A stretch of DNA of 64,000 nucleotides from Escherichia phage 4MG, in the sequence record NC_022968.1; one strand, given 5' to 3'. This document shows positions 29,200 through 29,285 of the stretch, in pieces (within the stretch, counting starts at the first letter, position 1; the number at the start of each line of letters is the position of its first letter). Under the pieces are notes generated by a model. It ran no database searches. It had not been told where the DNA came from and saw only the letters and a list, made by a program, of their open reading frames with translations. The translations under genes and the position numbers were made by a program.

Positions 29200-29285
29200 C
29201 GGTTCCTGAAGGATTCGAACCTTCGTTGTGGATTGCTCCAGGCAGGTTAACAGCCTGCTACCATCGGCCTCTCGGTCAAAGAACC
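29200..29285 (-). tRNA. class II (long variable arm) tRNA carrying Asn anticodon GTT
   Basis: 86 nt; T-arm GAAGG-TTCGAAT-CCTTC, anticodon arm GCAGG-CUGUUAA-CCUGC, 17-nt variable arm with 4-bp stem, G73, CCA encoded. Confidence 0.55.

Follow-up and report, generated by a model that had tools for sequence, protein, structure and literature searches.

Transfer RNAs (tRNAs) with long variable arms are, according to a published review, confined to tRNA-Leu, tRNA-Ser, bacterial tRNA-Tyr and tRNA-Sec (PMC7609411). Canonical bacterial tRNA-Asn, as encoded by E. coli asnT/U/V/W and by phage T5, has the anticodon loop CUGUUAA, the discriminator base G73 and a 7/5 cloverleaf. Nematode nev-tRNAs, described by Hamashima et al., are said to be long-armed and to bear non-cognate anticodons. 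Together with bacterial allo-tRNAs they carry the long arm beyond the Leu, Ser, Tyr and Sec anticodons, in unusual genetic contexts (PMC5389517); both groups have the identity elements of Leu or Ser tRNAs and are candidates for missense or nonsense decoding. Here we describe a gene in a 64,000-nt stretch of Escherichia phage 4MG DNA (NC_022968.1; hereafter the window) that shares their long arm but whose identity elements match its asparagine (Asn) anticodon. Compared with canonical tRNA-Asn, it keeps the anticodon loop, G73 and the cloverleaf, but has a 17-nt helical arm in place of a 5-nt variable loop, a class II D arm, and G1-C72 in place of the E. coli-type U1-A72. Most probably it decodes Asn in the ordinary way, with an unexpected architecture that is widespread and kept by selection.

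ARAGORN identifies the gene as tRNA-Asn with anticodon gtt on the minus strand, 89 nt long with an encoded CCA end, and the Rfam tRNA family RF00005 matches it at 29200..29285 with 51.0 bits (E 6.8e-9; gathering score 29). A preliminary description, made from the sequence, had given it the latter extent, which is the same gene because the CCA was left out. The ARAGORN cloverleaf comprises an acceptor stem of 7 bp, a D stem of 4 bp with a 9-nt loop and an anticodon stem of 5 bp, with nucleotides 8-9 (UG) between the acceptor stem and the D arm and an A before the anticodon stem; the acceptor/T branch is 7/5, unlike the 8/4 or 9/3 branch of allo-tRNAs (PMC5389517). At 17 nt and with a helix of its own, the variable region belongs to class II (at least 10 nt, own helix) and not to the class I shape typical of bacterial tRNA-Asn (variable loop of 4-5 nt); in the Rfam alignment it appears as a 14-nt insertion. 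Five helices are common to the ViennaRNA minimum-energy fold and the ARAGORN structure, and the bases of the tertiary interactions are all there (U8, A14, G15, G18G19, A21, C48, T54-A58). The minimum-energy z-score of -0.87 (ViennaRNA) is unremarkable and uninformative, as is usual for tRNAs. ARAGORN, Rfam and ViennaRNA thus return the class II fold with a 17-nt arm that had been proposed; the T arm, anticodon loop and discriminator as first read all hold in sequence and fold, and automated folding leaves the anticodon where it had been placed.

To delineate the family, we scanned IMG/VR with the pattern CTGTTAA, a spacer of 19-30 nt and GGTTCRAWTCC, and folded the matches, at least 120 loci, with ARAGORN. 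Among them were at least 96 distinct sequences of long-arm tRNA-Asn, in which the acceptor stems are entirely different; the family-wide counts out of 96 given below refer to the distinct long-arm sequences among the matches listed. For covariation we used 15 diverged relatives that share the D-arm type of the window tRNA. RNAalifold predicted the extra helix in these unaided, with double substitutions in 21 of 23 predicted pairs. When the cloverleaf was specified, 96.5% of base-pair cells were paired, compared with 67.3% after shuffling and 33-46% with the partners slid, and none of 500 shuffles reached the observed pairing, so that the support for pairing is far beyond chance. Within the variable-arm helix itself, both sides have changed at all four pairs.

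The geometry of the arm is also consistent across the family. Its stem has 3-4 bp in 90% of members and its loop 4 nt, most commonly GAAA (20) or GCAA (6), with 0-1 unpaired nucleotides on the 5' side and, in 77%, 3-4 on the 3' side (consensus CAYC). The typical design is a 7/5 cloverleaf with an arm stem of 3-4 bp, a GNRA-type tetraloop and a 3' linker of 3-4 nt ending in C48. This is the arm geometry of bacterial and phage tRNA-Tyr, and the window tRNA shows the short stem and several unpaired 3' nucleotides of the Tyr type, a likeness that is not specific. Phage tRNA-Ser arms have stems of 4-6 bp with one unpaired nucleotide on the 3' side in 42 of 61; the window arm, with 4 bp and four unpaired 3' nucleotides, lacks this large Ser-type shape.

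Bacterial Asn identity consists of the GUU anticodon and G73, a set that can be transplanted into tRNA-Lys, and a short variable loop is not among the published determinants of asparaginyl-tRNA synthetase (AsnRS) (PMC9976931). The window tRNA has both elements, in agreement with the earlier suggestion of a true Asn tRNA. The host AsnRS would thus charge the long-armed tRNA by reading its anticodon and G73 and not its body, and EF-Tu and the ribosome would then take the charged product like any long-armed tRNA. Across the family, 87 of 96 relatives (91%) have G73 and none has A73; the GUU loop is invariant because the search pattern required it. The pair U1-A72, which confers specificity for Asp-tRNA-Asn amidation (PMC9976931), is found in 57 of the 96. 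Asn codons make up 4.87% of the 15,451 codons in the long open reading frames (ORFs) of the window, and AAC, the exact match to the GUU anticodon, is preferred 2.5:1. Because G73 is kept, A73 never occurs and the Ser acceptor signature is variable (below), a genuine Asn decoder is the best reading, and the family counts at positions 73, 1-72 and 2-71 suggest a lineage selected for AsnRS-type elements and not for those of the seryl (SerRS) or tyrosyl (TyrRS) enzymes. We therefore consider it likely, on this sequence evidence, that the gene encodes a functional elongator tRNA-Asn, charged by the host AsnRS and serving as the one tRNA with which the phage reads AAC and AAU.

The preliminary description had also allowed for a missense decoder, that is, a tRNA-Tyr whose anticodon had mutated from GUA to GUU while TyrRS continued to charge it. 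The tRNA does resemble tRNA-Tyr: tRNA-Tyr is its best match throughout the 5426 E. coli genomes (76.5% over nucleotides 11-78), the arm geometry is Tyr-like, and G34 and U35 are kept. However, Tyr identity rests on A73, which is critical, and U35, and the antideterminants of E. coli TyrRS, like those of LeuRS, include G73 (PMC9976931). The window tRNA has G73 and, beside U35, a U at position 36 in place of A, such that both of the key determinants that differ between Tyr and Asn are switched. A73 is absent from all 96 relatives and present in all 42 phage tRNA-Tyr genes of the same contigs, and a normal tRNA-Tyr is already encoded in the cluster. At the observed frequency of Asn codons, moreover, constitutive missense would strike nearly every phage protein. 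Charging with Tyr is accordingly highly improbable.

Several observations weigh against the Asn assignment from another side. The window tRNA has six of the seven listed Ser determinants (G73, C72 within G1-C72, G2-C71, C11-G24, G30-C40 and a large variable region), failing only at R4-Y69, where it has U4-A69. AsnRS is a class IIb enzyme that approaches its tRNA from the variable-loop side and might not accommodate a long arm. Himeno et al., in 1990, reportedly obtained Ser acceptance in vitro from a tRNA-Tyr by extending its arm stem to 4 bp together with an A73G change. Ser identity is anticodon-independent, the published list comprising the six elements above together with R4-Y69, and SerRS ignores the anticodon (PMC9976931). 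SerRS might thus charge the tRNA at least partly, through its long arm, G73 and acceptor stem, making it a Ser-accepting or dual-identity tRNA that decodes AAY as Ser in the manner of nev- or allo-tRNAs. The D arm and core of the window tRNA are closest to phage tRNA-Ser, and long-armed tRNAs with non-Ser anticodons have precedents in the nev- and allo-tRNAs (PMC5389517). However, the three tRNA-Ser genes of the window all keep R4-Y69 (G4-C69, A4-U69 and G4-C69), and the arm is of the Tyr and not the Ser type, with a shorter stem and four unpaired 3' nucleotides instead of one. Nor are the Ser acceptor determinants conserved: within the same D-arm subfamily the 1-72 pair is U-A in 6 of 15 members, and 2-71 is G-C in 6 and C-G, a SerRS antideterminant (PMC9976931), in 4. 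Over the 96 relatives, position 2-71 is G-C in 43 and C-G in 37, compared with G2-C71 in 60/64 and G1-C72 in 55/64 true phage tRNA-Ser genes on the same contigs. Since this is also the sole AAY decoder for so frequent an amino acid, and since R4-Y69 fails and the arm is not Ser-shaped despite the six shared elements, we regard serylation as a live but minor rival that is improbable overall.

Table. Features of the tRNA-Asn gene and of neighbouring tRNA genes in the window.
Feature	Coordinates	Strand	Basis or remark
Whole tRNA-Asn(GUU) gene, 89 nt with CCA	29197..29285	-	ARAGORN; Rfam RF00005, 51 bits
Acceptor stem 5' strand GGUUCUU, nt 1-7	29279..29285	-	all 7 pairs covary in relatives
D arm ACCG-AGAGGCCGA-UGGU, 4 bp including G13-U22, 9-nt loop; Ser/Tyr class II type	29260..29276	-	
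Anticodon arm GCAGG-CUGUUAA-CCUGC	29242..29258	-	
Anticodon G34 U35 U36	29251..29249	-	sequence
Variable arm, 17 nt, starting with C	29225..29241	-	ARAGORN, minimum-energy fold, RNAalifold, covariation
Variable-arm stem, UGGA	29240..29237	-	
Variable-arm tetraloop GCAA	29236..29233	-	
Variable-arm stem, paired UCCA	29232..29229	-	
Variable-arm 3' linker CAAC	29228..29225	-	
T arm GAAGG-UUCGAAU-CCUUC	29208..29224	-	Rfam alignment, ARAGORN
Acceptor stem 3' strand AGGAACC, nt 66-72	29201..29207	-	ARAGORN, covariation
Discriminator G73	29200	-	sequence; G in 87/96 relatives
Encoded CCA end	29197..29199	-	sequence
tRNA-Tyr(GUA), A73, long arm; bona fide Tyr gene of the cluster	30588..30675	-	ARAGORN
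tRNA-Asp(GUC), directly downstream of the Asn gene	29116..29191	-	ARAGORN
tRNA-His(GUG), downstream of tRNA-Asp	29038..29111	-	ARAGORN

The architecture had first been treated as peculiar to one cluster, and it proved instead to be widespread. The window phage belongs to the Vequintavirinae, with Cronobacter phage GAP31 (94% identity), Enterobacter phage EC152 and E. coli phage LNA4 as its closest records, and every Vequintavirinae relative checked has a long-arm tRNA-Asn in the same slot. An identical tRNA lies on an IMG/VR contig of 148,567 bp (L033), near-identical copies on GAP31, EC152, LNA4 and Klebsiella phage VIK251, and diverged copies with the same acceptor stem on Avunavirus Av-05, TH18 and the 348-kb Salmonella phages 7t3 and SE_PL. 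All near-identical and diverged copies have GUU, G73 and the long arm, and their D, anticodon, variable and T stems show compensatory changes. In PVP-SE1 and KB57, relatives missed by BLAST, the same slot holds a long-arm tRNA-Asn on a different body, of 85 nt in both cases (arms GAGU-GAAA-ACUC-AAG and GAGC-AUUA-GCUC-UAU, respectively), so that long-arm Asn tRNAs with different bodies occupy one slot across GAP31, VIK251, Av-05, PVP-SE1 and KB57.

Beyond this subfamily, GenBank phage records contain the window version 13 times, a T5-like version of 83 nt 561 times and the PVP-SE1/phi92 version 78 times, about 650 in total. The T5-like version is found in SPC35, AKFV33, Stitch, the BASEL phages Bas29, Bas32 and Bas33, and the T4-like Klebsiella phage JD18. 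The lineages with a long-arm tRNA-Asn thus include Demerecviridae, Straboviridae, Stephanstirmvirinae, Vequintavirinae and jumbo phages, and also Phapecoctavirus. When the IMG/VR scan also allowed short variable loops, 11 of the 120 matches listed were long-armed, a share of about 9% that is rough, as the scan needs one T-loop consensus and covers the matches listed. In a collection of 100,044 species genomes, 18 of the 120 pattern matches listed were long-arm tRNA-Asn and 102 were not. Five of these 18 have archaeal-type bodies and appear to be intron-containing tRNA-Asn genes; seven of the other 13 sit in phage-like arrays of 13-28 tRNAs, and the rest on short or tRNA-poor contigs. Among these 120 matches there was therefore no evidence of a cellular, non-phage long-arm tRNA-Asn.

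Homologues are annotated in GenBank as plain 'tRNA-Asn'. We found no description of a long-armed tRNA-Asn, or of armed class I isotypes in phages, in the openly searchable full-text literature, with subscription-only papers outside this search; the long-arm tRNA-Asn is apparently a widespread and undescribed structural class. Asn is also not the only isotype concerned. On the IMG/VR contigs with a long-arm tRNA-Asn (L008-L127), arms were present on 30% of Cys, 18% of Thr, 14% of Met/Ile(CAU) and 14% of Ile tRNAs (including those with GAU and UAU), and on 4-11% of Trp, Glu, Asp, Gln, His and Lys tRNAs. Such arms were almost absent from contigs with a short-arm tRNA-Asn, with the exception of Ile(UAU), armed in 4 of 12 cases. 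Conversely, the two tRNA-Leu genes of the window (28428..28504 and 31289..31366, minus strand; UAG and UAA) measure 77-78 nt and have a 5-nt variable loop, which makes both of them class-I-shaped, and the short-armed share of distinct phage tRNA-Leu was 33/63 and 26/62 in two IMG/VR samples. Armed class I isotypes and armless tRNA-Leu together imply that phage arrays break the class I/class II rule in both directions.

The gene had been suggested to be Tyr-derived, and the resemblance to enterobacterial tRNA-Tyr stands, both in overall identity and in arm geometry; descent from tRNA-Tyr is supported only in part, the D arm and core being nearest to phage tRNA-Ser. Nor did nearest-neighbour analysis across the family favour Tyr ancestry: the D arms of 90 long-arm Asn tRNAs were heterogeneous and nearest to tRNA-Tyr in only 3. 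Other parts of the window tRNA point in further directions: its T arm recurs in the tRNA-Lys(CUU) of the window, and its acceptor stem and G73 match the short-armed tRNA-Asn of T5, where the nearly identical 5' strand reads GGUUCCU. The acceptor stem GGUUCUU/AGGAACC is not diagnostic, however, since phage tRNAs for Lys, Thr and Met share it. The KB57 long-arm tRNA-Asn, for its part, is 94% identical to the host tRNA-Asn over nucleotides 10-42, its 5' half. With GUU, G73 and the arm on at least two unrelated bodies, sequence comparison indicates that the combination arose by modular exchange or repeated acquisition and not by a single conversion from Tyr to Asn.

The arm could nevertheless be neutral baggage, inherited from a class II (Tyr or Ser) ancestor after a two-step identity switch (A36U, A73G) and tolerated by AsnRS. 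These two changes are all that separates the Tyr from the Asn identity set, the body of the window tRNA is class-II-like, and the arms sometimes seen on Cys, Thr, Met, Ile and other tRNAs in the same phages suggest the re-use of scaffolds in fast-evolving arrays. Set against this, the arm occurs on clearly different bodies, one of them with a largely host-like Asn 5' half, keeps a consistent geometry through many compensatory substitutions, and persists in at least five phage lineages even though the short-armed T5 version works; the D arms of the family, too, are not Tyr-like. We regard neutrality as possible but tentative. Because unrelated tRNA bodies carry the arm and compensatory changes have preserved it, we infer that it is probably maintained by selection.

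A candidate source of such selection is host defence. The PARIS nuclease AriB cuts E. coli tRNA-Asn(GUU) as a secondary target, between positions 40 and 41, and its second active site touches U16-U17 of the D loop; PARIS depletes host tRNA-Lys, tRNA-Thr and tRNA-Asn, and the T5 tRNA-Lys, tRNA-Thr and tRNA-Asn together neutralise it (PMC12409363). P2 OLD cleaves E. coli tRNA-Asn too (PMC12445682). Our preferred reason for the arm, which we put forward tentatively, is that it may let the phage tRNA-Asn escape host tRNA nucleases. By altering the face formed by the anticodon stem, D arm and variable pocket, it would make the tRNA a poor fit for defence nucleases that attack class I tRNA-Asn, leaving recognition by AsnRS untouched. 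A broader version of this idea, which we consider rather doubtful, holds that Tyr-type arms are an anti-defence device placed on tRNAs whose synthetases read only anticodon and discriminator, where they would leave the phage copies fit for translation but block the docking of host immune nucleases, among them the Toprim enzymes AriB and OLD, which span anticodon-stem positions 40/41 and the D loop. Asn tRNAs would be the chief case, joined in other phages by those for Thr(UGU), Lys, Cys, Met/Ile and others.

The closest comparison here is with nuclease-resistant phage tRNAs, namely T5 Lys, Thr and Asn against PARIS AriB, tRNA-Thr against P2 OLD, and T5 tRNA-Tyr against retron Eco7. The likeness lies in the isotypes, which are exactly those that host Toprim nucleases cut; the difference is that published resistance is ascribed to point changes in the anticodon stem and in the D loop, with the arm unmentioned. 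Within the UAAU motif common to AriB targets, the window tRNA itself has C in place of U39. At 78 nt, the T5 tRNA-Asn has a short arm, and the whole of its 3' end, 28 nt long, is shared with phage 7t3. Bas33 (HildyBeyeler) has a long-arm tRNA-Asn of 86 nt, a long-arm tRNA-Thr(UGU) of 87 nt and no tRNA-Lys(UUU), and T5 tRNA-Lys alone rescues it from PARIS (PMC12409363), from which we infer that its own armed Thr and Asn tRNAs may sustain decoding when the host copies are cut. In trans, the Bas33 tRNA-Thr(UGU) strongly counters P2 OLD (bioRxiv 10.64898/2026.07.10.737580).

Other data speak against a role of the arm in evading nucleases. The papers that use Bas32 and Bas33 tRNAs credit anticodon-stem substitutions and leave the arm unmentioned (PMC12409363, PMC12445682). 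Bas34 needed the short-armed T5 tRNA-Asn in trans despite having an Asn tRNA of its own, which may be long- or short-armed (PMC12409363). Furthermore, when positions 39-41 were compared, U39 at the AriB site was no rarer in long-arm (63%) than in short-arm (40%) phage Asn tRNAs, a difference that the diversity of the hosts makes hard to interpret.

The armed Bas33 tRNA-Thr(UGU) (L359, 6001..6087; 87 nt) has an arm composed of 1 nt, 3 bp, GUAA, 3 bp and 4 nt. The same armed form occurs in about 100 other T5-like GenBank records, and Bas32 and T5 have a short form. The shape of this tRNA goes without comment in the OLD counter-defence experiments.

A further reading would make decoding at most a side role of the gene, which would instead be either a decaying pseudogene or a tRNA-shaped decoy or inhibitor that sequesters a host tRNA nuclease or some other factor binding tRNA. 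The authors of the PARIS study suggest that some overexpressed viral tRNAs may compete for AriB (PMC12409363), and several neighbours in the window are aberrant and tRNA-like. However, compensatory changes preserve all helices, and the CCA end, anticodon loop and G73 are intact, the exact Asn identity set being something that a decoy would not need. The gene is also conserved in several phage families, and without it the tRNA set, which covers all 20 amino acids, would lack Asn. A pseudogene or decoy is very unlikely on these grounds.

As an ordinary Asn decoder of unexpected shape, the tRNA shows the textbook class II rule to be broken in the roughly 650 deposited phage genomes counted above and in many uncultured phages, with the model phages Bas29, Bas32, Bas33, phi92, PVP-SE1 and SPC35 among the carriers. 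It is a natural experiment on how strongly the shape of the tRNA body matters to a class IIb synthetase, and it provides ready scaffolds for the engineering of orthogonal or tagged tRNAs. As tRNA-Asn is a known PARIS and OLD target, the arm may also add a new layer to the phage-host conflict over tRNAs. Were the anti-defence idea true, these would form a new class of 'armoured' phage tRNAs and a new principle of counter-defence, overturning the rule that limits class II to Leu, Ser, Tyr and Sec; were the tRNA mischarged, it would be a natural device for sense-codon reassignment in phages.

The gene belongs to an array on the minus strand that comprises at least 28 tRNA or tRNA-like genes and is flanked by a terminase gene and a tail-fibre/NAPRTase region. 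As first noted, the array encodes a separate bona fide tRNA-Tyr(GUA), and no other tRNA with an Asn anticodon was found in the window by ARAGORN or Rfam; the three tRNA hits found by Rfam alone have UUU, CAU and UCC anticodon loops. The Asn gene is 5 nt upstream of tRNA-Asp, and the spacers among the Asn, Asp and His genes measure 4-5 nt, which suggests that the three tRNAs probably share one transcript. The Asn-Asp order also occurs in GAP31, PVP-SE1, KB57 and 7t3. A scan for promoters and terminators around the Asn gene gave nothing above shuffled expectation on the relevant strand, and Pfam searches of the neighbouring ORFs returned the terminase and NAPRTase only, with no tRNA-modifying or synthetase gene adjoining the cluster. 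All three adjacent genes, Asn(GUU), Asp(GUC) and His(GUG), have GUN anticodons, and Tyr(GUA) lies 1.3 kb upstream. GUN anticodons are those modified with queuosine at position 34, and the same group is the target set of colicin E5.

Several other members of the array are irregular, all of them on the minus strand. A tRNA-Lys(UUU)-like gene at 29459..29542 (Rfam 50.5 bits, missed by ARAGORN) has a 13-nt D-loop insertion, and at its slot the GAP31 annotation gives a tRNA-Lys of 87 nt; PARIS and PrrC have tRNA-Lys(UUU) as their main target, and modelling places AriB in contact with the D loop. A CAU-anticodon tRNA (Met or Ile2) at 28179..28257 (Rfam 45 bits, likewise missed by ARAGORN) has a 9-nt D-loop insertion. 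The tRNA-like gene at 30264..30333 has a 6-nt anticodon loop and is labelled 'tRNA-???' by ARAGORN; since it is kept in GAP31, where it is annotated as a pseudo tRNA, and in KB57, it may not be a case of simple decay. A weak tRNA-like match at 30428..30499 (27-29 bits, below threshold; loop CUUCCAA with UCC, Gly) occupies the slot of a tRNA-Gly in GAP31 and PVP-SE1. The tRNA-Ser(UGA) at 29548..29636 has an irregular D arm and scores higher with the Rfam tRNA-Sec family (34 bits, below that family's threshold) than with the generic tRNA family. In T5, a 'tRNA amidotransferase' (T5.081; L128, 14618..15001) is annotated at the edge of the tRNA region.

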